DNA from: a virus
Taxonomy: Duplodnaviria > Heunggongvirae > Uroviricota > Caudoviricetes
Length of the DNA stretch: 34,598 nucleotides
Virus record (IMG/VR): IMGVR_UViG_2541047807_000005
Strand: one strand, 5' to 3'
Shown here: positions 1,039 to 33,664 of the stretch, piece by piece
Numbering within the stretch: the first letter of the stretch is position 1
How the letters are laid out: every line of letters begins with the position of its first letter
The notes under the pieces: model-generated
Database searches by the model: none
The model's input: only the letters and a program-made list of their open reading frames with translations
Told to the model about the DNA's origin: nothing
Position numbers and translations under genes: made by a program

Positions 1039-1226
1039 AAAAAATGCCCTCCAGTGGAGAGCATTTTTACTGTATGTATAACCAGTGTCAATGTATGAAA
1101 TCCTGTGACGATACATCTCACTGAAGCCATAATGAAGTTGGCTATTCTTTTTGCTATGTGAGTATGTAAATTTTGCGGCTAACCTGCGGCTCATTTTTAT
1201 TTTAGGCGCAGATATAAAAGCAAAAG

Positions 1227-1418
1227 TTATCGTGAGTTTTTAGTACAGATTTTTTTGGATTTACTAATAGTTCCATCATTGCAAACGAATTTGCCATCTG
1301 AGGTACAGTGAGAAACACCTCCCTTTTTCCCTGAGCAGGGATAATTTCTAGCATAGGTAGTTAGTGGGTTTAATAACAAAGAACATGACAAAACCACAAA
1401 AAATACCTTACCAAGCAT
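1227..1418 (-). CDS. Small predicted secreted Cys-rich protein (63 aa), unknown function
   Basis: ORF with GGAGG RBS about 7 nt upstream; hydrophobic signal-peptide-like N-terminus then 4 Cys; AT-rich; sits between cI and int. Confidence 0.45.
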
Positions 1419-2416: not shown

Positions 2417-2926
2417 ATGTTTGATTACCAAGTTTCCAAACATCCACATTTTGATGAAGCCTGTCGTGCATTCGCACTGCGCCACAATCTGGTGCAACTG
2501 GCAGAACGTGCTGGCATGAATGTGCAGATTCTGCGGAACAAGCTGAACCCATCTCAACCTCATTTATTAACCGCACCAGAAATCTGGCTGCTTACCGATC
2601 TGACAGAAGATTCAACGCTGGTAGATGGTTTTCTGGCACAGATTCACTGCCTGCCATGTGTACCGATTAATGAGGTTGCAAAAGAGAAACTGCCGCATTA
2701 CGTCATGAGCGCAACTGCAGAGATCGGACGTGTTGCAGCAGGTGCGGTATCTGGTGATGTAAAAACTAGTGCCGGTCGTCGTGATACTATCAGCAGCATT
2801 AACTCTGTAACACGACTGATGGCGCTGGCTGCTGTTTCATTGCAGGCCCGTTTACAGGCTAATCCTGCGATGGCGAGTGCAGTTGATACCGTGACTGGCC
2901 TCGGTGCTTCATTCGGTTTGCTGTGA
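2417..2926 (+). CDS. cII: CII-like transcriptional activator (186 CII family)
   Basis: ATG 2417 with GGAG RBS; 169 aa; N-terminus [19 protein letters not shown] recalled as 186 CII-like. Confidence 0.7.
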
Positions 2927-2933
2927 GGTGCTT

Positions 2934-3134
2934 ATGCTGACGAAAGAACCATCATTTGCATCGCTGCTGGTAAATCAAAGCCCGGCAATGCACTACGGTC
3001 ACGGCTGGATCATGGGTGAGGATGGTAAACGCTGGCATCCGTGCCGTTCACAAGATGAATTGCTGGCAGAACTATCTACGAAAAAACGGGGGAACAAATG
3101 GCTATTGAAGGCGCTGCGGCTACTGTTCCATTAA
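2934..3134 (+). CDS. Hypothetical early-region protein (66 aa)
   Basis: ATG 2934 preceded by GAGGTG; position equivalent to 186 fil/dhr region. Confidence 0.45.
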   Translation: MLTKEPSFASLLVNQSPAMHYGHGWIMGEDGKRWHPCRSQDELLAELSTKKRGNKWLLKALRLLFH

Positions 3135-3967: not shown

Positions 3968-4266
3968 CAGGGGCTGTGCGTATCCATCAATTAAAAATTG
4001 CACCTAAGTATTTCAACGCTGTGGTTGCAGGTCAAAAGACGGCTGAACTTCGTAAAGACGATCGTGGCTATAAAGTTGGTGATGTTCTTTCTCTTTGCGA
4101 ATGGAAGCATGGCGTATTTACGGGTAGGGAATGGGCCGCGGTTATCTCTCATGTGCTTCCGGTTAATGACGTCATGGCAGTTACAGAACAATGGGTGATG
4201 CTATCAATTCGCTCATTAACCCCATTAGAAGCTTTAGGATATGTTATTGCAGGAGGTGCTGTATGA
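3964..4266 (+). CDS. ASCH/DUF3850-like domain protein
   Basis: ATG 3964 with GGAGG RBS; motif [30 protein letters not shown] typical of ASCH-like phage proteins. Confidence 0.55.
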
Positions 4267-5120
4267 GCACCATCCTGAAATGGGCGGGTAATAAAACCAC
4301 CATTATGTCCGAACTGAAAAAATACCTTCCTGCTGGCACGCGACTGGTTGAACCTTTCGCGGGTTCTTGTGCTGTGATGATGGAGACGGATTACCCCAGC
4401 TATCTGGTTGCGGATATTAATCCTGATTTAATCAACCTCTATAAAAAGGTTGCTGCTGATTGTGAGGCGTTTATATCTCGTGCCAGAGCTTTATTTGAGG
4501 AAGCAAACAGAGAGGTGGCTTATTACAACATAAGGCAGGAGTTTAATTACTCCACTGAAATTACTGATTTCATGAAAGCGGTATATTTTCTGTATCTCAA
4601 TCGTCATGGTTACCGTGGGCTATGTCGCTATAACAAGAGCGGGTATTTCAACATTCCCTACGGTAATTATAAAAATCCGTATTTCCCTGAAAAAGAAATT
4701 CGCGCATTTGCAGAGAAAGCCCAGCGGGCAACGTTTATCTGCGCCAGCTTTGATGAAACGCTGGCGATGTTGAAGGCGGGGGATGTGGTGTATTGCGATC
4801 CGCTTTATGACGGTACGTTTTCCGGCTATCACACTGATGGCTTCACTGAAGATGACCAGTATCACCTGGCATCCGTTCTTGAACATCGATCATCTGAAGG
4901 TCATCCGGTCATTGTTTCTAACAGTGACACATCCCTGATCCGTTCGCTGTATCGCAATTTTACTCACCACTACATCAAGGCAAAACGCAGCATCGGCGTG
5001 GCAGCTGGTGAGAGTAAATCTGCAACAGAAATCATCGCTGTTTCCGGGCCGCGCTGCTGGGTAGGATTTGATCCTTTGCGTGGCGTGGATTGTTCCGTCG
5101 TGTACGGAGTGCGTGCATGA
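4263..5120 (+). CDS. dam: Dam-family DNA N6-adenine methyltransferase
   Basis: N-terminus LKWAGNK...EPFAGSCAV (SAM-binding) and catalytic-motif region VVYCDPLY; ATG 4263 with GGAGG RBS. Confidence 0.85.
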
Positions 5121-7531
5121 GCCATGCTGATATGAACAACTGCAGCGGCTTTAACGAGGTCGCCGCAGCATTCTCATGGAACAGCCCGAAAAAGGCCATT
5201 AACCCTTATCTGGACCCGGCGGAAGTTGCGCCGGTTTCTGCGCTTTCAAACCTGATCACTCTGTACGCTGCCGATAACGAGCAGGAACAACTGCGCCGCG
5301 AGGCACTGAGTGATCAGGTCTGGGAGCGTTATTTCTTTAATGAATCCCGTGATCCTGTCCAACGCGAAATGGAGCAGGATAAGCTAATTAGCCGGGCAAA
5401 GCTGGCGCATGAGCAGCAGCGTTTTAATCCAGACATGGCCATTCTGGCGGACGTCAACGCCCAGCCTTCCCATATCAGCAAGCCGCTGATGCAACGTATT
5501 AAATACTTCAGCAGCCTGGGCAGGCCAAAGGCTTATTCCCGCTATTTGCGTGAGACGATTAAGCCATGCTTGGAACGACTGGAGCATGTACGCGACAGTC
5601 AGCTATCCACTTCTTTTCGCTTTATGGCAAGCCATGAAGGGCTGGACGGCCTGCTGATCCTGCCTGAAATGAGTCAGGATCAGGTGAAACGCCTGTCCAC
5701 CTTGGTAGCTGCGCATATGAGCATGTGCCTTGATACAGCTTGTGGCGATTTGTATGCCACCGATGATGTTACGCCAGAAGAAATCCGCAAGACATGGGAA
5801 AAGGTGGCAGCGGAAACCCTGCGTCTGGATGTTATCCCGCCTGCGTTTGAGCAACTTTGTCGGAAAAGAAACCGCCGTAAACCCGTGCCTTATGAACTCA
5901 TTCCGGGTTCGCTGGCGCGTATGTTATGCGCCGACTGGTGGTATCGGAAATTATGGAAGATGCGTTGCGAATGGAGGGAAGAGCAGTTGCGTGCTGTTTG
6001 CCTGGTCAGCAAAAAAGCATCTCCCTATGTCAGCTATGAAGCCGTGATGCATAAACGTGAGCAGCGCCGTAAGTCGCTGGAGTTTTTCCGTTCTCATGAA
6101 CTGGTGAACGAAGACGGCGACACGCTGGATATGGAAGACGTGGTAAACGCCAGCAGCAGCAACCCTGCGCATCGCCGCAATGAGATGATGGCCTGTGTTA
6201 AAGGTCTGGAGCTTATCGCGGAAATGCGTGGTGACTGCGCCGTTTTCTACACCATCACCTGTCCGTCACGTTTCCATTCCACGCTAAATAACGGCAGGCC
6301 CAACCCGACCTGGACAAATGCGACGGTAAGACAAAGCAGTGATTATCTGGTCGGTATGTTTGCTGCATTTCGTAAGGCGATGCACAAAGCCGGATTACGC
6401 TGGTATGGCGTGCGGGTGGCTGAGCCGCATCATGACGGTACAGTTCACTGGCACCTGTTGTGTTTTATGCGCAAAAAAGATCGCCGCGCCATTACTGCTT
6501 TGTTGCGTAAGTTTGCCATTCGTGAAGACCGCGAGGAGCTGGGTAATAACACGGAACCACGCTTTAAGTCTGAGCTGATAAACCCGCGCAAAGGTACGCC
6601 AACAAGCTACATCGCGAAATACATCAGTAAGAACATTGACGGGCGTGGTCTGGCTGGCGAGATCAGCAAGGAAACGGGTAAATCCCTGCGTGATAACGCC
6701 GAATACGTTAATGCCTGGGCGTCTTTGCATCGTGTTCAGCAATTCCGCTTCTTTGGCATTCCGGGGCGTCAGGCTTACCGTGAACTGCGATTGCTGGCTG
6801 GTCAGGCGGCAAGGCAACAGGGGGACAAAAAAGCAGGTGCGCCGGTACTGGATAACCCGCGCCTTGATGCCATCCTGGCTGCCGCTGATGCTGGCTGTTT
6901 TGCCACCTACATCATGAAGCAGGGCGGCGTACTGGTTCCCCGCAAATATCACCTCATCAGAACCGCTTATGAAATCAACGAAGAGCCGACCGCCTATGGC
7001 GATCACGGTATTCGTATTTATGGCATCTGGTCACCCATTGCAGAGGGCAAGATCTGCACTCATGCGGTGAAGTGGAAAATGGTTCGTAAGGCCGTTGACA
7101 TTCAGGAGGCGGCAGCCGACCAGGGCGCTTGCGCCCCTTGGACTCGTGGCAATAACTGTCCCCTTGCTGAAAATTTGAACCAGCAGGAGAAAGATAAATC
7201 AGCTGATGGGGACACCAGAACGGACATTATCTGCATGGATGACAAGGAGTTGCACGATTATCTGCACAGTATGAGCAAAAAAGATCGCCGGGAACTGGCA
7301 GCAAGGTTACGCCTGGTGAAACCGAAACGGCGTAAAGACTACAAACAGCGAATTACAGACCATCAGCGACAGCAGCTTGTCTATGAACTGAAGTCCAGAG
7401 GATTTGATGGCAGCGAGAAAGAGGTCGAGTTGCTCCTTCGCGGTGGCAGTATTCCGTCAGGAGCAGGCCTGCGTATCTTCTATCGGAACCAGCGTCTGCA
7501 GGAGGATGATAAATGGCGGAACATGTATTAA
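5117..7531 (+). CDS. A: Replication initiation endonuclease gpA (rolling-circle Rep)
   Basis: 804 aa; HUH-like motif VHWHLL and active-site Tyr motif YIAKYISKN; synteny after early operon. Confidence 0.9.
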
Positions 7532-7883: not shown

Positions 7884-8117
7884 ATGCGCATTGAAATAAT
7901 GATCGATAAAGAGCAGAAGATTAGCCAGTCTATCCTGGACGCCCTTGAATCCGAGCTTTACCGCAATCTGCGCCCCCTGTATCCAAAAACGGTAATTCGT
8001 ATCCGCAAAGGTAGCTCTAACGGTGTGGAACTGACCGGACTGCAACTGGACGAAGAAAGAAAACAAGTGATGAAAATTATGCAGAAGGTGTGGGAAGACG
8101 ACAGCTGGCTGCATTAG
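7884..8117 (+). CDS. DinI-like protein
   Basis: 77 aa, MRIEIMIDKEQ...KVWEDDSWLH resembles DinI family; GAGGTGA RBS. Confidence 0.8.
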   Translation: MRIEIMIDKEQKISQSILDALESELYRNLRPLYPKTVIRIRKGSSNGVELTGLQLDEERKQVMKIMQKVWEDDSWLH

Positions 8118-8245
8118 AGAACGTTGCGGATGATAAAACTAGCTTTTACCATCTGCAAGGCTGAACAACGATTGTAGCGAGGTGTTAGGTGGTTCAAAAG
8201 TAAAGCGGTTATTTTGCCCGTAAAAGTGAACCACCTGTATCTTGA

Positions 8246-8986
8246 TCAGTTTTCTTTGAATTTTTCACTTAATCGTTTCGTCAATACTTCGACAGATTCT
8301 TTGCGACCGGAGAACAAGTCATTGACGACGTACTCCATAATCTCAAAAGCATCCTCAATGTCTTTGACTTTTACTTCATCGTAGGTATGGCTTCCGGCAT
8401 TTCCTAAAAATTTAATTGCCATAAGAGGTCTTGAAAACGATCCGTATAATTCAGGTAGCATCCCTAAACGGTGGTGTAGAGTTATGCGTTTGCCATTATC
8501 ATTACGTTCAGCTACATCCATAGCGGTTAGCATTCTTTCAACTGAAATTCGAATTAGGTTTGCTGCTGCGCCAGGCTGTATTAGGAAAATGGAAAATGAG
8601 GCTTCAAGCGGTTCGGTAATTTCTTCTGGGCATTTTTCAGGTATTTCGAAAGGATGCAGTGATGGGTAAAAGGTGAAAGGTCTGTGCCATTGATAGTACT
8701 CAATATCATTTCTTTCTTCATCCCAACCTTGTTCCCATCCACTCTTACCAGTACAGGCCACAACTTCACCACATTGCATTCTTGAACAGCGGGCCATGCA
8801 ACTGAAAATAGATGAATCCATTTCTAGTTCAAACCAATCTTCACTGCGGAATTTTCGGGTATCATGTGTGTCATACGAGACGAAACTTTCTTTAATGATC
8901 TGTAGGGTTTTCTGATTGCAGTTAGGGCAGGGCCACTCAACCTGCATATCGTGGAAAAACGCACCAGAGAGCTTGTGCACAGTCAT
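8246..8986 (-). CDS. Hypothetical Cys-rich protein (246 aa) at the tin/old accessory position; candidate defence gene
   Basis: ORF with GAGGAA RBS; N-terminal CPNC...C-x3-C-x4-C-x5-C cluster; AT-rich versus phage core; opposite strand to gene A. Confidence 0.6.
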   Translation of the reverse strand: MTVHKLSGAFFHDMQVEWPCPNCNQKTLQIIKESFVSYDTHDTRKFRSEDWFELEMDSSIFSCMARCSRMQCGEVVACTGKSGWEQGWDEERNDIEYYQWHRPFTFYPSLHPFEIPEKCPEEITEPLEASFSIFLIQPGAAANLIRISVERMLTAMDVAERNDNGKRITLHHRLGMLPELYGSFSRPLMAIKFLGNAGSHTYDEVKVKDIEDAFEIMEYVVNDLFSGRKESVEVLTKRLSEKFKEN

Positions 8987-9187
8987 TCTTTGTGTTCCTC
9001 ATTTTTATGATTGGTAGGGATTGTATCTTCATACACGATTACAGTTGCATTAAAGATAAGCCATAGCAAGCTACTGGAAAAGAGACGAAACAGCTGGGCA
9101 TATCAGATGTTTTTTCTTAAGGTAAGTTGTTGTGCATGCCTATACTGCATGAGATTGCATGATCGTTTGAGGATCGTTATTGCTAAG

Positions 9188-9212
9188 GCCCACCAGAACT
9201 GGCGGGCTTTTG
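9188..9212 (+). terminator. Terminator-like hairpin (GCCCACCAG-aa-CTGGCGGGC then TTTT)
   Basis: 9-bp GC-rich stem with one mismatch followed by T run, inside the cos-containing intergenic region. Confidence 0.35.
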
Positions 9213-9256
9213 CGTAGAGCATGCAGGTGCATGAAAACAACTACATAAAGCGGGCA

Positions 9257-9275
9257 GGCGTGGCGGGGATACGAT
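9257..9275. other. Candidate cos cohesive-end sequence GGCGTGGCGGGGATACGAT
   Basis: Matches the 19-nt P2/186 cohesive end as I recall it (GGCG[A/T]GGCGGGGAAAGCA[C/T]) at about 14 to 16 of 19 positions; located upstream of portal Q as expected. Confidence 0.5.
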
Positions 9276-9344
9276 TGCGCGCAGAAGATTATTATTGGTA
9301 CACTGTCGGTGACTCTCTACGCAGATCTTACACATTAATTTCTA

Positions 9345-10157
9345 ATGGGGCATGCTATGATCTTTCTAAGTCATAATCACCGTGACAAAAGGTTTGTAAG
9401 TGTTATAGCGGAAAAACTAGCAGATGTTTATGGGCGTGATAACGTATTCTACGATTCTTGGTCTATCCAACCCGGAGAGGGTATTATTGACAAGATGAAT
9501 TTAGGAATGGAGAATGTATCGTTCTTTTTCTTTTTTGTCACAGAAAATAGCTTGGCAAGTAACATGGTAAAAATGGAATGGCAAAATGCTTTAATTAAGG
9601 CATCGTCCGGGAAGTGTAAATTTATACCAATACGTTGCCAGAATATATCCTTGCCTGCTCTGCTTACTCAAACGCTATATATTGATCTTTATTCGTATGG
9701 GATCGATGTGGCAATAAGACAAATTATAGATGTCATTAATCAACAAAATACGTATATTCCTAATCCTGAGAAGTATTCAAACCTCTCCTATGATATTAAG
9801 GATGATGATGGGGGTAAGATAGTGAAATTATCAGCAATGGATTTTTTAGAACCAATTGCTGATTTTATGATGATTATGGATAATACAATTAAGCATGATG
9901 ATGTTGTTGTTATGGTCAATGGAGAAAGCTCATTCACTCAGGGGTTTATTGAAAATGCATCTTTAGAAAATGGTATGAAAGTAAGTGGTGCCACTGTTGG
10001 CCTAAATCGGGGGTTAACACCAACGATGCCAATGTATGTTTCTCTTAGGTTAAAGGATGGTTCACCTTTGAATATATTTGCGGTGCTACATCGAGTAAGT
10101 ACCGAGCGTTATGCTCCTATACCACATAAAGCCGATGATGCCTTTAGAGTAAAATAA
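9345..10157 (+). CDS. TIR-domain protein (270 aa) with uncharacterised C-terminal domain; candidate anti-phage effector
   Basis: N-terminal region IFLSHNHRDKRFV...DSWSIQPGEGIIDKM...FFFFFVTENSLASNMVKMEW matches bacterial TIR pattern; AT-rich; between cos-like site and portal gene. Confidence 0.7.
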   Translation: MGHAMIFLSHNHRDKRFVSVIAEKLADVYGRDNVFYDSWSIQPGEGIIDKMNLGMENVSFFFFFVTENSLASNMVKMEWQNALIKASSGKCKFIPIRCQNISLPALLTQTLYIDLYSYGIDVAIRQIIDVINQQNTYIPNPEKYSNLSYDIKDDDGGKIVKLSAMDFLEPIADFMMIMDNTIKHDDVVVMVNGESSFTQGFIENASLENGMKVSGATVGLNRGLTPTMPMYVSLRLKDGSPLNIFAVLHRVSTERYAPIPHKADDAFRVK

Positions 10158-26777: not shown

Positions 26778-29700
26778 TAATAACCTGCGCCTGCAGGTCA
26801 TTCTTAATGCGGTTGACAAACTCACCCGCCCATTTCGATCTGCGCAGGCCAGTTCAAGAGAACTGGCTGCTGCTGTCAAAAAATCCCGCGATGCAATAAA
26901 GCAGCTTGATCAGGCCGGGAGCAGTCTGGACAGCTTCCGAAAGCTGCAGGCAGAAAATCAGAAATTAGGCGACAGGCTGAACTATGCCCGCCAGCGTGCC
27001 AATTTGCTCAGTCAGGAACTGGGAGCGATGGGGCCGCCTTCGCAACGTCAGGTTGTCGCTCTGGGCCGTCAACGGCTGGCTGTTCAGCGCCTGGAAGAAC
27101 GCCAGAAAAAGCTGCAGCAGCAGACGGCGCTTGTGCGTGCAGAACTTTATCGTGCTGGTATTTCAGCTAATGATGGCGCCAGTGCGACGGCCCGCATTAC
27201 CCGTGAAACGATGCGTTATAACAGGCAGCTTTCTGAGCAGGAAGCGAGGTTACGACGTGTCGGGGAGCAACAGCGAAAAATGCACGCCGCCCGGGGGGCT
27301 TACGTCAGGCGTCTTGAGGTAAGGGATCGTATTGCAGGTGCTGGAGCCACCACCACGGCGGCAGGGCTGGCAATGGGCGCGCCAGTGATGGCGGCAGTAA
27401 AAAGCTATACCAGCATGGAAGATGCCATGAAAGGTGTGGCAAAGCAGGTCAATGGTCTGCGTGACGATAATGGCAACCGCACTGCACGTTTTTATGAAAT
27501 GCAGGATGCCATCAAGGCTGCCAGCGAACAGTTGCCGATGGAAAACGGTGCTGTGGACTTCGCCGCACTGGTTGAAGGTGGTGCGCGCATGAACGTCTCA
27601 AACCCTGATGACAGCTGGGAAGACCAGAAACGTGACCTGCTGGCCTTCGCCAGTACGGCTGCGAAGGCGGCAACAGCCTTTGAGCTGCCAGCGGATGAAC
27701 TGTCAGAAAGTCTGGGGAAAATCGCCCAGCTCTACAAAATACCTACCCGCAATATTGAACAGCTCGGCGATGCGCTGAACTATCTGGATGATAACGCCAT
27801 GTCGAAAGGGGCGGACATCATTGATGTGATGCAACGTCTGGGCGGTGTGGCTGACCGTCTGGATTATCGTAAAGCGGCGGCACTGGGTTCCACCTTTCTG
27901 ACACTGAGCGCTGCGCCGGAGGTTGCAGCCAGTGCAGCAAACGCGATGGTGCGTGAATTGTCCATTGCCACCATGCAAAGCAAGAGTTTCTTTGAAGGGA
28001 TGAATCTGCTGAAACTCAATCCTGAAGTGATTGAAAAGCAGATGACGAAGGATGCGATGGGAACTATCCAGCGTGTGCTGGAGAAGGTGAACGCACTGCC
28101 GCAGGACAAGCGTCTGTCTGCCATGACCATGTTGTTTGGTAAAGAGTTTGGCGATGACGCAGCGAAACTGGCAAACAACCTGCCGGAACTGCAGCGCCAG
28201 TTAAAACTGACAGCGGGCAATGATGCGCTCGGCTCCATGCAGAAAGAATCCGACATTAACAAGGATTCACTTTCTGCGCAGTGGTTGCTGGTCAAAACCA
28301 CTGCGCAGAATACCTTCAGCAGCCTGGGCGAAACGCTGCGCCAGCCGCTGATGGATATTCTGTACACGGTGAAAAGCGTCACGGGGGCGTTGCGTCGCTG
28401 GGTGGAAGCTAACCCGGAACTGACGGGCACACTGATGAAAGTAGCAGCGGTTGTGGCTGCCGTTACCGTGGGCCTCGGCACCCTGGCTGTGGTGTTGGCT
28501 GCAGTGCTGGGGCCGCTGGCAGTGATCCGTCTGGGATTCTCTGTGCTGGGTATCAAAACGTTACCTTCCGTTACGGCAGCAGTAACACGAACCAGCAGCG
28601 CGTTGTCCTGGCTGGCTGGCGCTCCACTGGCAGTGCTGCGACGCGGGCTTGCTTCATCGGGTAACGCAGCGGGTTTACTTACTGCGCCGTTGTCGTCTTT
28701 GCGCCGTATGGCATCACTGACGGGAAATGTCCTGAAAACTGTAGCAGGTGCGCCGGTTGCACTATTGCGGTCCGGTTTATCCGCTTTACGTGCTGTTGCT
28801 GTGATGTTTATGAATCCTCTGGCGGTACTGCGCGGTGGACTGGCTGCCGCAGGCGCGGTGCTTCGTGTGCTGGCATCTGGTCCGCTGGCGATGCTGCGCG
28901 TTGCCCTGTATGCCGTATCTGGTCTGTTAGGTGCTCTGCTCAGTCCGATAGGTCTTGTGGTTACTGCACTGACGGGTGTGGCGCTGGTTGTCTGGAAATA
29001 CTGGCAACCCATCACCGCATTTCTCGGTGGCGTGGTGGAAGGATTCAAAGCGGCGGCAGGTCCCATCAGTGCAGCATTCGAACCACTTAAGCCTGTGTTT
29101 CAGTGGATTGGCGACAAAGTGCAGGCGCTGTGGGGCTGGTTTACTGATCTGCTGACGCCCGTTAAGTCGACCTCTGCTGAACTGCAGAGCGCAGCGGCAA
29201 TGGGGCAACGATTCGGGGAGGCACTGGCGGAAGGACTGAATATGGTCATGCATCCGCTGGACTCCCTGAAATCCGGCGTATCCTGGTTGCTGGAAAAACT
29301 CGGCATTGTCAGTAAAGAGGCCGCAAAGGCAAAACTGCCGGAAAGCGTGACGCGTCAGCAACCTGCGACGGTGAATGCAGACGGCAAAGTGATGATACCA
29401 TCGGGTGGTTTTCCGTCATGGGGATATGGCTTTGCGGGGATGTATGACAGCGGCGGCTATATCCCGCGCGGGCAGTTTGGCATCGTCGGTGAAAACGGGC
29501 CTGAAATTATCAACGGCCCGGCAAATGTGACCAGCCGGAAAAATACAGCTGCACTGGCTGCCGTTGTTGCCGGAATGATGGGCGTTGCTGCCGCGCCTGC
29601 AGAGCTTCCACCGTTACATCCTTTGGCACTTCCCGCGAAAGGCGGCGAAGCGATGGTGAGTCGTGCAGCCACTGTGCCGCCCGTTCAACGGATTGAGGCA

Positions 29701-29847
29701 CCGACGCAGATCATCATTCAGACGCAGCCAGGACAAAGTGCGCAGGATATTGCGCGGGAGGTGGCCCGCCAGCTTGATGAACGTGAACGCAGGCTGAAGG
29801 CAAAAGCCAGGAGTAACTACAGCGATCAGGGGGGATACGACGCATGA
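26770..29847 (+). CDS. T: Tail tape measure protein gpT
   Basis: 1025 aa, coiled-coil N-terminal region, hydrophobic Ala/Leu/Val-rich central region; synteny. Confidence 0.9.
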   Translation: MSDNNLRLQVILNAVDKLTRPFRSAQASSRELAAAVKKSRDAIKQLDQAGSSLDSFRKLQAENQKLGDRLNYARQRANLLSQELGAMGPPSQRQVVALGRQRLAVQRLEERQKKLQQQTALVRAELYRAGISANDGASATARITRETMRYNRQLSEQEARLRRVGEQQRKMHAARGAYVRRLEVRDRIAGAGATTTAAGLAMGAPVMAAVKSYTSMEDAMKGVAKQVNGLRDDNGNRTARFYEMQDAIKAASEQLPMENGAVDFAALVEGGARMNVSNPDDSWEDQKRDLLAFASTAAKAATAFELPADELSESLGKIAQLYKIPTRNIEQLGDALNYLDDNAMSKGADIIDVMQRLGGVADRLDYRKAAALGSTFLTLSAAPEVAASAANAMVRELSIATMQSKSFFEGMNLLKLNPEVIEKQMTKDAMGTIQRVLEKVNALPQDKRLSAMTMLFGKEFGDDAAKLANNLPELQRQLKLTAGNDALGSMQKESDINKDSLSAQWLLVKTTAQNTFSSLGETLRQPLMDILYTVKSVTGALRRWVEANPELTGTLMKVAAVVAAVTVGLGTLAVVLAAVLGPLAVIRLGFSVLGIKTLPSVTAAVTRTSSALSWLAGAPLAVLRRGLASSGNAAGLLTAPLSSLRRMASLTGNVLKTVAGAPVALLRSGLSALRAVAVMFMNPLAVLRGGLAAAGAVLRVLASGPLAMLRVALYAVSGLLGALLSPIGLVVTALTGVALVVWKYWQPITAFLGGVVEGFKAAAGPISAAFEPLKPVFQWIGDKVQALWGWFTDLLTPVKSTSAELQSAAAMGQRFGEALAEGLNMVMHPLDSLKSGVSWLLEKLGIVSKEAAKAKLPESVTRQQPATVNADGKVMIPSGGFPSWGYGFAGMYDSGGYIPRGQFGIVGENGPEIINGPANVTSRKNTAALAAVVAGMMGVAAAPAELPPLHPLALPAKGGEAMVSRAATVPPVQRIEAPTQIIIQTQPGQSAQDIAREVARQLDERERRLKAKARSNYSDQGGYDA

Positions 29848-30329
29848 TGATGGTGCTGGGATTGTACGTGTTTATGCTGCGCACCGTGCCGTATCAGGAA
29901 CTGCAGTATCAACGCAGCTGGCGACATGCGGCAAACAGCCGGGTAAACCGTCGTCCGTCCACGCAGTTTCTGGGACCGGAAAACGATATGCTGACGCTTT
30001 CCGGTGTTCTTATGCCGGAGATAACAGGCGGCAGGCTGTCGTTGCTGGCACTGGAGCAGATGGCAGAACAGGGGAAAGCATGGCCCCTGATTGAAGGCAG
30101 CGGCACGATTTACGGCATGTATGTGATTGAGGGACTGAATCAGACTAAAACGGAGTTTTTCCGCGACGGTATGCCGCGCCGGATTGAGTTCACCCTGTCG
30201 CTAAAACGGGTGGATGAATCCCTGTCCGATATGTTCGGTGATCTCAGTACTCAACTGAATAATCTGCAGGACACGGCAACGTCTGCTTTAAGCGATATCA
30301 GTAAAACGGTGGGAGGGCTGCTGTCGTGA
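29844..30329 (+). CDS. U: Tail protein gpU
   Basis: 161 aa, overlaps T stop, synteny. Confidence 0.8.
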   Translation: MMMVLGLYVFMLRTVPYQELQYQRSWRHAANSRVNRRPSTQFLGPENDMLTLSGVLMPEITGGRLSLLALEQMAEQGKAWPLIEGSGTIYGMYVIEGLNQTKTEFFRDGMPRRIEFTLSLKRVDESLSDMFGDLSTQLNNLQDTATSALSDISKTVGGLLS

Positions 30330-31434
30330 ATTTCAGCTCTGAACTGCTTAACAAAGGCAACAAAACTCCGGCATTCAGCATCAGTGTTGAGGGCAGGGAT
30401 ATCACCACTGTGCTGGACAACCGCCTGATGGGGCTTACGCTGACGGATAACCGGGGCTTTGAAGCGGACCAGCTTGATCTGGAGCTGGACGACGCTGATG
30501 GAAAAATCGTGCTGCCGCGCCGTGGTGCGGTCATTACGCTGGCGCTGGGCTGGAAGGGACAGCCGCTTTTCCCGAAAGGGGCATTCACGGTGGACGAGAT
30601 TGAACACACTGGCGCACCGGACCGCCTGACCATCCGGGCGCGAAGTGCTGATTTTCGGGAAACGCTGAATACCCGCCGTGAAAAATCGTGGCACAAGACC
30701 ACGGTCGGGGAAGTGGTGAAGGAAATAGCTGCGCGGCACAAACTGAAGATGGCACTGGGTAAAGACCTGTCGGATAAGCCCGTGGAACATATAGACCAGA
30801 CCAATGAGAGTGACGGCAGTTTTCTGATGCGGCTGGCGCGCCAGTACGGTGCTATTGCGTCGGTGAAAAATGGCAATCTGTTATTCATCCGGCAGGGACA
30901 GGGCAAAAGCGCCAGCGGTAAACCTCTGCCGGTGATCACTATCACACGCAAGGACGGCGACAGTCACCGCTTTACCCTGGCAGATCGCGGAGCCTATACG
31001 GGCGTAATTGCCAGTTGGTTGCATACCCGCGAACCCGCGAACCCGCGAAGAAAGAAAGCACCACGGTGAAGCGTAAGCGCAGGACCGCAAAGCAGAAGAA
31101 AGAGCCGGAAGCGAAGCAGGGCGATTACCTGGTGGGTACGGATGAAAACGTGCTGGTACTTAATCGCACTTATGCCAACCGGAGCAACGCCGAACGGGCA
31201 GCGAAAATGCAGTGGGAACGCCTGCAACGCGGCGTTGCATCATTCTCGCTACAACCGGCGGAAGGGCGGGCAGATCTCTACACAGAAATGCCTGTGAAGG
31301 TCAGTGGCTTTAAACAGCCGATAGATGATGCGGAATGGACCATTACGACTCTGACGCATACCGTCAGCCCGGATAACGGTTTTACGACCAGTCTGGAGCT
31401 TGAAGTGAGGATTGATGATTTCGAAATGGAATGA
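30326..31434 (+). pseudogene. D: Tail protein gpD, interrupted by frameshift at an 8-bp tandem repeat (two ORFs 30326..31069 and 31015..31434)
   Basis: The two ORFs together equal P2 gpD length (~386 aa) and both resemble gpD; removing one CCCGCGAA copy fuses the frames. Confidence 0.75.
31026..31049 (+). repeat. Tandem octamer CCCGCGAA x3 within gene D
   Basis: Three perfect direct copies at 31026-31033, 31034-31041, 31042-31049. Confidence 0.9.
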
Positions 31435-31524
31435 TTCTTCGCAATGGAGAACTTTTAAGTTTGCAAAATGGAATGATGCGGTATCATTATTGTGAATTTA
31501 GCAAAAATGGGGAGAACTCGAAAA

Positions 31525-31743
31525 ATGATGATTTGCCCACTGTGCGGAAGTGCCGCCCATACTCGCAGCAGTTTTCAGGTATCTTCATTGACCAAAGAGC
31601 GTTACAACCAGTGCCAGAACATTAACTGCAGCCATACTTTTGTTACCCATGAAACTTTTGTTCGTTCGATTGCAACGCCAAAAGAGTCAAATCCGGTTCA
31701 GCCGCATCCAATGAAATCAGGACAGGTGGCGCTCTCTCTTTGA
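31525..31743 (+). CDS. ogr: Ogr late-gene transcriptional activator (zinc finger)
   Basis: 72 aa from ATG 31525; CPLCGSAAH...ERYNQCQNINCSHTF matches P2 Ogr pattern. Confidence 0.85.
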   Translation: MMICPLCGSAAHTRSSFQVSSLTKERYNQCQNINCSHTFVTHETFVRSIATPKESNPVQPHPMKSGQVALSL

Positions 31744-31823
31744 CGCTGCCGCCATTTTGTCGCCATCGTTAAAAAACAGTGCTTCTAACGTCATGATTTT
31801 AAACGGCATAAATTTCAGGCAAC

Positions 31824-31866
31824 AAAAAACCCATCAACCTTGAACCGAAATGGCGGGGTTGATGGG
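31824..31866 (-). terminator. Intrinsic terminator on minus strand, likely for ybjL
   Basis: 10-bp inverted repeat CCCATCAACC / GGTTGATGGG with a U run on the minus strand, ~110 nt past ybjL stop. Confidence 0.5.
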
Positions 31867-31978
31867 CTCCACAAAATGGGGACATCAAAGAAAAGCAGTG
31901 GCACTAATTAAGACTGATGCCCTGCGGAAAAGTTCTGCGGTTGTGCAAAAAAATTTCATTTTCAGGGCAACTTCAGTT

Positions 31979-33664
31979 TTATCCTAATCCTGGCCATACC
32001 ATGACGATGATTGTCCCTGCCAGCGTCAGCAGGACGTTGGCGATTGCATAGGTGCCCGCATAGCCCAGCGCCGGGATGTTACTGCGAGCTGTATCACTGA
32101 TGATCTCCATTGCCGGCGCGCAGGTGCGTGCGCCCATCATTGCGCCGAACAACAGTGCGCGGTTCATTCGCAATACATAAGCACCGAACAAGAAACAGAT
32201 AACCACTGGCACAAGACTGACAATTAATCCGGCAATCAACATCTGACCGCCAATCGTGCCCAGGCCGTTATTAATACCGCTACCGGCGCTCAGACCAACG
32301 CCTGCCATAAACACCATTAAGCCGAACTCTTTCACCATGCTTAATGCACCCTGCGGAATGTAACCGAAGGTCGGGTGGTTAGCGCGCATAAATCCCAGCA
32401 TAATTCCGGCGAATAACAACCCGGCAGCGTTCCCCATGCCGAAACTGAATGTGCTGAACTGGAAGGTGATCATCCCGATCATCAGCCCAATAACAAAGAA
32501 GGCGCAGAATGCCAGCAAGTCAGTGACCTGGCTATGAATCGAGATAAAGCCGATGCGATCGGCGATGGTTTTTACGCGACGGGCATCGCCGCTGACTTGT
32601 AAAACGTCACCTTTGTTAAGCACGACGTTGTCATCTATCGGCATCTCAATCTGGCTACGAATGACGCGGTTAAGGAAGCAACCGTGATCGGTCAACTTCA
32701 GTTGTGCGAGACGTTTGCCAACGGCGTTATGGTTTTTAACGACCACTTCTTCAGTGACGATACGCATGTCGAGAAGGTCACGATCGAAAACTTCTTTGCC
32801 GTTACGGAAGCTGGGATCGAGTCGGGCGTGGGCGTCGGGATAGCCTACCAACGCTATTTCATCGCCCATTTGTAGCACAGCATCACCGTCTGGATTCGCC
32901 AGAATCCCGTTACGTCGAATACGTTCAATGTAGCAGCCAGTTTGTCGATAAATACCCAGTTCACGCAGATTTTTGCCGTCGGTCCAGGCCACCAGCTCCG
33001 GGCCGACGCGGTAGGCGCGGATCACCGGTAAATAAACCTTACGGTTGGCATCAGTGTCCAGGCCACGTTCGCGGGCGATTTGCTGGGCGCTGGTCTGTAA
33101 GTCCTGATGCTGCAATTTCGGCAAGTAACGCGCACCAACAATCAAACTCACCAGACCGATTAAATAGGTTAAGGCATACCCGAGGCTCAGATTATCCAGT
33201 GCCAGTGAGAGCTGCCTGCTTTCCATGCCGGAATGACGCAGTGTATCGCCAGCACCGACCAGAACCGGTGTTGACGTCATAGAGCCAGCTAACATACCGG
33301 CCGTCAGGCCAATATCCCAGCCAAACAGCTTACCTAACCCTAAGGCGATCACCAGCGCACTGCCAACCATCACCAGTGCTAACATTAGGTAATTTTTCCC
33401 ATCGCGAAAAAAAATGGAAAAAAAGTTCGGTCCGGCTTCGACCCCGACGCAGAAAATAAACAGCATAAAGCCAAGATTAAGCGCGTCGGTGTTAATGCTG
33501 AAATGTTGTTGGCCTAATAACAGCGATACGACTAAAACGCCAATGGAATTACCCAGTTGGATCGAACCAAGTCGTAATTTCCCGAGACATAGCCCAAGCG
33601 CGAGGACCACAAATAATAACAGAATGTAATTCCCATTTAACAATTCGGCGACGTTTATATTCAC
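31979..33664 (-). CDS. ybjL: Putative transport protein YbjL (YidE/YbjL family)
   Basis: 561 aa multi-pass membrane protein; sequence recalled as E. coli YbjL. Confidence 0.85.

Follow-up and report, generated by a model that had tools for sequence, protein, structure and literature searches.

A YdcA-family gene for a predicted exported peptide between the repressor and integrase genes of a P2/186-like Escherichia coli prophage

The gene at the cI-int junction and its family

In this study, a stretch of 34,598 nucleotides (nt) of viral DNA (Caudoviricetes; IMG/VR record IMGVR_UViG_2541047807_000005), called the window throughout, was analysed with attention to a small open reading frame (ORF) that lies on the minus strand between a 186-type cI repressor gene and a P2-type tyrosine integrase gene, int (Table 1). 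The window shares 99.97% identity with a region of E. coli Rb-23 in which a complete P2/186-like prophage between rcdA and ybjL is accompanied by ybjL, ybjM and grxA. The ORF had been picked out in an earlier sequence-only reading as a frame of 63 amino acids with a GGAGG ribosome-binding site, wedged between the repressor and integrase genes, and this description was confirmed, with the GGAGG standing 5 nt before the ATG; the start codon lies 15 nt downstream of the cI stop codon (1434-1436) on the same strand. By its match to curated family models, the ORF is a prophage copy of the already named YdcA family and not a new gene, and it is referred to here as ydcA. We place a probability of about 0.6 on the reading that this YdcA is expressed in lysogens and carried by the prophage as periplasmic cargo, a figure that covers identity and cargo status and does not extend to any mechanism of exclusion.

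The sequence-only reading, which had suggested homology and structure searches as a check, missed the family name; the searches returned the named YdcA family, along with a weak reciprocal match to the Legionella protein Dis2. We observed that the encoded protein scored 115.8 bits against the NCBIfam model NF007463 (PRK10040.1-2), above the curated cutoff of 93 (E 5.3e-34, model positions 1-58 of 58), and fell below the cutoff of the equivalog model NF007462 (68.5 against 118). It also matched phrog_6000 (E 1.9e-34), whose function label in PHROGs is unknown, and was identical in sequence to RefSeq WP_000900883.1, a "YdcA family protein", while Pfam PF27300 is precomputed for the cluster representative P0001, which is 98% identical to it. 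All four cysteines and the invariant or near-invariant columns of the family pattern PCSG-KGG-x-SHC ... FVCNDG-x-S-x-SKK-x-C were present. The chromosomal YdcA of the E. coli K-12 type (PRK10040 models, PF27300), a protein of 57 amino acids encoded next to cybB, shares 57% identity and the same architecture, namely a signal peptide followed by the four-cysteine pattern PCSGxKGG(V/I)SHC...GKFVCNDG(T/S)xSxSKKxC; the window copy differs from it in belonging to NF007463 and not NF007462, and in lying in a prophage repressor operon rather than at the cybB locus. Two other domain matches were set aside, a GULLO2-like Pfam match that was sub-threshold and spurious (PF27300 is newer than the Pfam copy scanned) and an NCBIfam lpg1681 match (E 0.11) dismissed as noise.

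Relatives were numerous. A word-indexed search gave 64, with PF27300 on all those that have a recorded domain; a profile search through all of 1.84 billion representatives gave 457 at E<=1e-3; and a scan of viral contigs gave 493, the best 80 of which were all near-identical E. coli copies. When positions 1000-2150 of the window were compared by megablast, 999 of 5,426 complete E. coli genomes showed a match, and int-ydcA-cI was covered to at least 80% in 591 of these 999, so that the module is present in approximately 11% of complete E. coli genomes. In databases the gene is therefore unremarkable, being found in hundreds of E. coli genomes and assigned to a named family. A DNA search of the phage collection matched the start of int and its leader, with none to the ydcA ORF. 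Conservation in related prophages, on which the sequence-only reading had made its proposal depend, was also found, as a ydcA-like gene follows cI in Haemophilus phage HP2 and in Yersinia prophages. Comparatively, three E. coli alleles that are about 90% identical in DNA to the window show 10-12 synonymous and 1-2 non-synonymous substitutions relative to it, a ratio of non-synonymous to synonymous change per site (pN/pS) of 0.02-0.06. This synonymous excess in diverged alleles argues that the protein is under purifying selection, and, judged by these substitutions, 1227-1418 is a genuine gene on which such selection is strong. An overlapping ORF of 50 amino acids in another frame (1202-1354, minus strand) was rejected because the allele substitutions fall at third positions of the ydcA frame.

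Table 1. Features of the window discussed in the text, with strand and basis of assignment (aa, amino acids; GC, guanine plus cytosine; CDS, coding sequence)
Feature	Position	Strand	Details
ydcA-like CDS	1227-1418	minus	63 aa including signal peptide; ATG start 1418-1416, stop 1227-1229; ORF list
Predicted Sec signal peptide, aa 1-23	1350-1418	minus	K4, hydrophobic core at residues 5-16, T-Y-A at 21-23
Mature YdcA domain, 40 aa	1230-1349	minus	near-invariant in homologues; AlphaFold2 confidence (pLDDT) 87-90
Shine-Dalgarno GGAGG	1424-1428	minus	upstream of ydcA ATG; read from sequence
186-type cI repressor gene	1434-2003	minus	Pfam Phage_CI_repr 3.3e-31, Phage_CI_C 3.8e-29; limits transferred from RefSeq CDS
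3' untranslated part of cargo segment	1098-1226	minus	between ydcA stop and conserved int leader; 37% GC, no annotated gene
Promoter-like site for int	1063-1091	minus	TTGACA 1086-1091, 17-nt spacer, AAAAAT 1063-1068; promoter scan
LexA-box-like palindrome ACTGGTTATACATACAGT	1069-1086	minus	in int promoter spacer; only match in window, 0.18 expected by chance
13-bp hairpin AAAAAUGCUCUCC-ACU-GGAGGGCAUUUUU with U-run	1040-1068	minus	ends 2 nt before int AUG
P2-type tyrosine integrase gene (int)	1-1038	minus	Pfam Int_N 8e-33, Phage_integrase 1.9e-21; RefSeq CDS limits
DinI-like gene	7884-8117		transferred from Rb-23 annotation (99.97% identical)
DUF4145-domain gene	8246-8986	minus	transferred from Rb-23 annotation
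TIR-domain gene	9357-10157	plus	transferred from Rb-23 annotation

The predicted precursor and its mature domain

The signal-peptide-like N-terminus claimed from the sequence was recovered with a basic residue, a hydrophobic core and a T-Y-A end (Table 1), and the family as a whole exhibits the same pattern. When 35 homologues were aligned, the first approximately 23 residues varied in sequence and kept in every case the succession of basic N-terminus, hydrophobic core and small-x-small end (TYA|R, SFA|K and AQA|A among the homologues, a family pattern of [AST]-x-A directly before the mature domain), while the next approximately 35 residues were almost invariant. Among the 185 family members whose domain lies at the N-terminus, 169 have a lysine or arginine within the first eight residues, and the median distance from the N-terminus to the start of the domain is 26 residues. 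This family-wide pattern supports the suggestion of an exported peptide, and the precursor is predicted to be a Sec substrate that signal peptidase I would cut after Ala23. The count of four cysteines given earlier holds for the mature part (C28, C38, C46 and C58) and not for the precursor, which has a fifth, C12, within the signal peptide; only the mature four are conserved.

The fifth cysteine bears on the suggestion, also made in the sequence-only reading, that the product is a lipoprotein or a toxin, that is, a protein anchored to the membrane by a lipidated Cys12, or a secreted toxin or bacteriocin that kills competitors. Residues 9-12 (V-L-S-C) loosely resemble a lipobox, and small cysteine-rich secreted peptides are often antimicrobial. 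Against lipidation, Cys12 is absent from most homologues, in which the Ala-x-Ala type of site before the mature domain is conserved; only 11 residues precede it, K4 among them; Leu occupies position -2; and only 4 of the 185 presequences contain a lipobox-like motif. The PROSITE rule PS51257 places the lipobox cysteine at positions 15-35, and a conserved signal peptidase II site of adequate length with the form [LVI][ASTVI][GAS]C was not found. As Cys12 is unconserved and too near the N-terminus, the precursor was taken as a signal peptidase I substrate. A toxin finds no immunity, processing or export gene beside the ORF, and the chromosomal paralogue stands alone next to cybB. We consider both versions very improbable.

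The mature peptide would consist of 40 residues (4.29 kDa, isoelectric point 9.7), with 7 Lys, 2 Arg and 2 Asp, a net charge of about +7 and the glycine-lysine motifs GKKGG and SKSKK. An AlphaFold2 model built with the family alignment (mean pLDDT 77.6) displays a small beta-hairpin core. We infer that the four conserved cysteines form two disulfides, giving a strongly basic knot of 40 residues with the fold of one lobe of Dis2, the solved relative considered below.

The cI-int junction as a cargo site

A scan for promoters and terminators revealed no minus-strand promoter-like or terminator-like site in the gap between cI and ydcA. Two plus-strand candidates that face away from the genes were put down to chance, namely a promoter-like site at 1438-1466, the number of promoters in the scan being equal to the shuffled expectation, and a terminator-like site at 1173-1189. 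In Haemophilus phage HP2 an unannotated YdcA-family ORF of 60 amino acids, 54% identical to the window protein (2920-3102 of locus L002, approximately 2486-2668 of the record), begins within the cI stop as TAATG, and the gene order there is cI, the ydcA-like gene, orf1 (an exported protein with an oligonucleotide/oligosaccharide-binding (OB) fold of nucleic-acid-binding type, tRNA_anti-like at 2.8e-13) and int; phage S2 gave the same match as HP2. With a gap of 15 nt that lacks promoter and terminator, and with the overlap in HP2, expression on the lysogenic transcript is the natural inference, and the lysogenic promoter would thus drive ydcA together with cI, so that the product would be made in lysogens. 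The 80 species-representative loci examined extend this arrangement, as a 186-type cI lies directly upstream of a ydcA-like gene in Escherichia, Yersinia and Pasteurellaceae, with a P2-type int downstream, and the cI proteins of these loci are only 33-37% identical and the integrases about 47%. This coupling to the repressor in distant P2-like phages of E. coli, Yersinia and Haemophilus suggests that the peptide is probably made in every lysogen.

The observation that the ORF is no part of the canonical cI-int operon was upheld by Salmonella phage RE-2010, in which cI and int are 2 nt apart with nothing between. Other phages carry other genes at the same place. E. coli phage vB_EcoM-813R9, which is also inserted next to rcdA, has a gene of 558 amino acids (4076-5752 of locus L007) that is annotated as a 'chromosome segregation ATPase' and was recognised as PD-Lambda-1 (PADLOC 3e-120; Pfam T5orf172/MUG113 and DUF4041), which indicates that the cI-int junction can hold a defence system, and Klebsiella phage 4LV2017 has an unrelated gene of 349 amino acids. 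The DNA similarity of these other-cargo phages to the window resumes approximately 60 nt upstream of int, at about 1097, which delimits the cargo segment to roughly 1098-1433. According to a 2026 survey, P2-like phages have a minor hotspot for defence genes between integrase and primase (PMC13586616). By this comparison of positions, the P2/186-like prophage carries ydcA as accessory cargo between cI and int. With the cargo of the P2 hotspots (old, tin and fun/Z, and PD-Lambda-1 in 813R9) it shares a variable location between core genes, presence/absence polymorphism and low GC; it differs from them in having no PADLOC homology, in encoding an exported peptide of 63 residues and not a cytoplasmic enzyme, and in being coupled to cI without a promoter of its own.

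The proposal that the gene is a lysogenic-conversion moron stands in part. Presence and absence at one junction were evident (nothing in RE-2010, other genes in 813R9 and 4LV2017, ydcA in the window), so the gene is an extra one at a variable site. No promoter and terminator of its own were found, the gene being embedded in the cI operon, and the only terminator-like hairpin downstream of it belongs to the int leader (1040-1068). The statement that the ORF is AT-rich was likewise right in value and not specific to the ORF, as its GC content is 35.4% against 51.2% for the whole window, yet the adjacent cI has 38.2% and the 3' part of cI 33.7%.

The int leader is structured. Its hairpin has a predicted stability of -19.9 kcal/mol (z-score -5.3, with none of 200 shuffles as stable), appears also in the fold of the whole spacer, pairs the int Shine-Dalgarno GGAGGG within its stem and has the -10 hexamer of the int promoter as its 5' arm. 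The LexA-box-like palindrome in the promoter spacer is kept in the E. coli alleles, Klebsiella phage 4LV2017, phage 813R9 and Yersinia prophages, the Yersinia copy being a perfect CTGT-N8-ACAG. These features suggest that int is under its own SOS-regulated promoter, and the hairpin looks like a terminator for read-through from cI-ydcA that also sequesters the int Shine-Dalgarno. In such a design, read-through would stop at the hairpin or leave int untranslated, while transcripts from the SOS-controlled promoter, because the -10 hexamer lies in the 5' arm, would start inside that arm, lack the hairpin and so translate int; ydcA would then be the last expressed gene of the lysogenic operon. The position of the ORF between cI and this leader, with its hairpin, palindrome and promoter-like site, could also mean that the ORF matters only to the phage as a regulator, its translation merely setting the read-through into int. 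We hold this to be the most improbable of the explanations considered, as the amino-acid conservation (the pN/pS values given above) goes beyond what a spacer needs and the invariant mature domain occurs across Proteobacteria in non-phage contexts.

Dis2, the wider family and possible functions

Among PDB sequences, phmmer returned one significant match for the protein, chain AN of 7MUC (E 3e-5, partly through the signal peptide), which the depositors labelled 'neurogenic locus notch homolog' and which corresponds to Dis2 (Lpg0823), part of the outer-membrane cap in the Dot/Icm type IVB secretion system of Legionella pneumophila (7MUC/7MUD). The family profile gave Dis2 at 4.6e-5, and the four cysteines of the YdcA domain align with those of Dis2 lobe 1. 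With Foldseek, 7MUC_AN was ranked first for the model (probability 0.99, 38% identity over 39 columns), with an E value of 0.07 and a template-modelling (TM) score of 0.43; in the reciprocal comparison, the mature Dis2 lobe 1 matched only the two YdcA models in NCBIfam, weakly, at E of about 0.02. In Dis2, five disulfides pin two lobes that resemble each other (PMC8486379); the protein adjoins the outer membrane, makes contact with three lipoproteins (DotC, DotD and DotK) and is described as Legionella-specific (PMC8486379, PMC12716638). Both proteins are small, exported (by prediction for YdcA) and disulfide-rich, and Dis2 is the sole solved structure with similarity in both sequence and fold. 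Homology of the YdcA domain to a Dis2 lobe is probable, though not proven, and would qualify the view of Dis2 as Legionella-specific. Orthology to Dis2 is ruled out for the window protein, first because it consists of a single lobe with four mature cysteines in place of two tandem lobes with five disulfides, and second because Dis2 is part of the Dot/Icm machine of its host, whereas the window holds a P2/186-like prophage with ybjL, ybjM and grxA and no secretion-system genes.

A weak similarity in sequence raises the possibility of a periplasmic protease inhibitor acting in the manner of ecotin or plant Pin-II, which would shield envelope proteins or block a protease needed by a rival phage or the host. 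The potato type II (Pin-II) proteinase inhibitor 1ytp was matched at E 0.24 when the single sequence was the query and at 0.074 when the profile was, with the alignment running over ...DG.FVC... and cysteine positions, and a Providencia homologue lies between the tail-specific protease gene prc and an M48 peptidase gene. These E values are not significant, Pin-II domains have eight cysteines against four, none of the 50 best-ranked of 100 Foldseek matches (E<=10) is a Pin-II structure, and the Providencia loci are repeated counts of a single lineage. This explanation is therefore improbable.

Members of the family were also disclosed on other mobile elements, among the late genes of Moraxella and Acinetobacter phages and on plasmids of Acinetobacter and Rhizobium. 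The Acinetobacter MOBQ plasmids pApiMCR53a (3.9 kb) and pGFJ6 (4.1 kb) carry a small traD, a ydcA-like gene and orf243, which encodes 243 residues of unknown function; the retention of a ydcA-like gene on a replicon of 4 kb is a striking use of space. Among 70 family representatives of at least 95 amino acids, five have the YdcA domain N-terminal to a secreted nuclease (Endonuclease_NS in three, SNase in one and PLD-like in one), and these fusions, P0124, P0191, P0204 and P0216 among them, are joined through a low-complexity linker and involve three unrelated nuclease superfamilies. A nuclease gene was adjacent in 2 of the 80 loci. In P0080 and P0081 the YdcA domain is repeated in tandem, with two or three copies, which recalls the two-lobed Dis2.

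Given the identity of the protein as YdcA, we put forward, tentatively and as a possibility that we rate well below the identity itself, that the mature peptide acts at the site of DNA entry, on the periplasmic face of the outer membrane, and excludes foreign DNA. In this scheme ydcA would be co-transcribed with cI in the lysogen, the precursor exported by Sec and cut after Ala23, and the mature peptide would bind, at this face of the outer membrane, a partner that is anionic or belongs to the envelope; if that partner is incoming DNA or DNA-conducting machinery, the lysogen would be shielded from superinfecting phage, conjugative DNA and, in competent hosts, transforming DNA. The proposal rests on the nuclease fusions and neighbours, the charge of +7, the location of Dis2, the plasmids with traD, the validated defence gene PD-Lambda-1 at the same junction and the OB-fold neighbour in HP2. 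Small proteins of mobile elements that act in the envelope to block entry are known, such as T5 Llp, T4 Imm/Sp and IncP TrbK, and the likeness is one of analogy only, as small exported envelope-acting proteins of a resident mobile element; no sequence relationship was found, and several of these are lipoproteins or membrane proteins while YdcA is predicted to be soluble and periplasmic. A broader version, which we regard as doubtful, makes the YdcA/Dis2-lobe domain a periplasmic DNA- or conduit-binding module and a minimal entry-exclusion factor of mobile elements, which would be deployed by P2/186/HP1-type prophages (coupled to cI), by Moraxella and Acinetobacter phages and by MOBQ plasmids of 4 kb. 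If true, this would define a new class of superinfection-exclusion or anti-transformation protein, and would provide a function for the orphan Dot/Icm component Dis2 and for the E. coli y-gene ydcA.

Several observations weigh against the exclusion mechanism or against parts of the reading on which it is built. The Dis2 similarity is weak at the Foldseek and reciprocal E values given above, and Dis2 itself makes protein-protein contacts, is dispensable and has no assigned function (PMC8486379, PMC12716638). A scan of PADLOC-DB v2 with the ydcA ORF returned no family at E<=0.01, whereas PD-Lambda-1 was recognised by the same scan. The nuclease fusions could equally reflect an anchoring domain or one for dimerisation or oligomerisation. 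Most family members occupy heterogeneous chromosomal contexts without a link to mobile elements, including the cybB locus, neighbourhoods of DUF2946 and the prc-htpX interval. The signal peptide was assigned by rules and comparison of homologues and not by SignalP, and as cI is as AT-rich as the ydcA ORF, the composition is no mark of separate acquisition. Full-text searches of the literature with the RefSeq accessions, PF27300 and PRK10040 found no paper on this gene, and a search on an effect of HP1 lysogeny on Haemophilus transformation, which was reportedly described in the 1970s, found nothing usable. Lastly, the published link of chromosomal ydcA is to tolerance of acid and 3-hydroxypropionate, and not to phage (PMC7642389).

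That paper was the exception among literature matches to 'ydcA', which were mostly unrelated namesakes (a Bacillus rhomboid, a gonococcal island). It reports that the function of chromosomal ydcA is unassigned, that the gene is controlled by YdcI and up-regulated at pH 5, and that its deletion sensitises E. coli W to 300 mM 3-hydroxypropionate, an effect overridden by deletion of yieP (PMC7642389). Together with the 57% identity between the two proteins and the many family members at core chromosomal positions without mobile-element genes, the acid induction and the deletion phenotype would fit a host-fitness factor, the prophage copy acting like chromosomal YdcA in the periplasm, making the lysogen more tolerant of acid, organic-acid or envelope stress, and not on incoming DNA. 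A second copy would add little, yet the prophage allele is strongly selected and the family has spread on phages and small plasmids; the published phenotype concerns a single condition and is overridden when yieP is deleted (PMC7642389); and the nuclease fusions and traD-adjacent plasmid copies are left unexplained. On this evidence we find a role in host fitness unlikely, though clearly less so than an inhibitor of proteases.

The reading of ydcA as lysogen-expressed periplasmic cargo makes it a cheap and testable candidate for a lysogenic-conversion or exclusion factor. As the family is spread over Proteobacteria on chromosomes, phages and plasmids, the locus offers a convenient test case for its function, and the Dis2 link and the fusions to secreted nucleases give a possible route to roles for both ydcA and Dis2.

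Other features of the prophage

Away from the junction, the canonical cargo hotspot of P2, which separates the replication gene from the portal gene, lies at approximately 7884-10157 of the window and is occupied here by the last three genes of Table 1; the DUF4145 and TIR genes may be a defence pair. The annotation of the Rb-23 prophage treats both the tape-measure gene and late-control gene D as pseudogenes with frameshifts (28858-33521 of locus L177, corresponding to 26848-31511 of the window), and from these annotated frameshifts the prophage may be defective. A recombinase fragment was also noticed beside the tail-fibre genes of the Rb-23 prophage.

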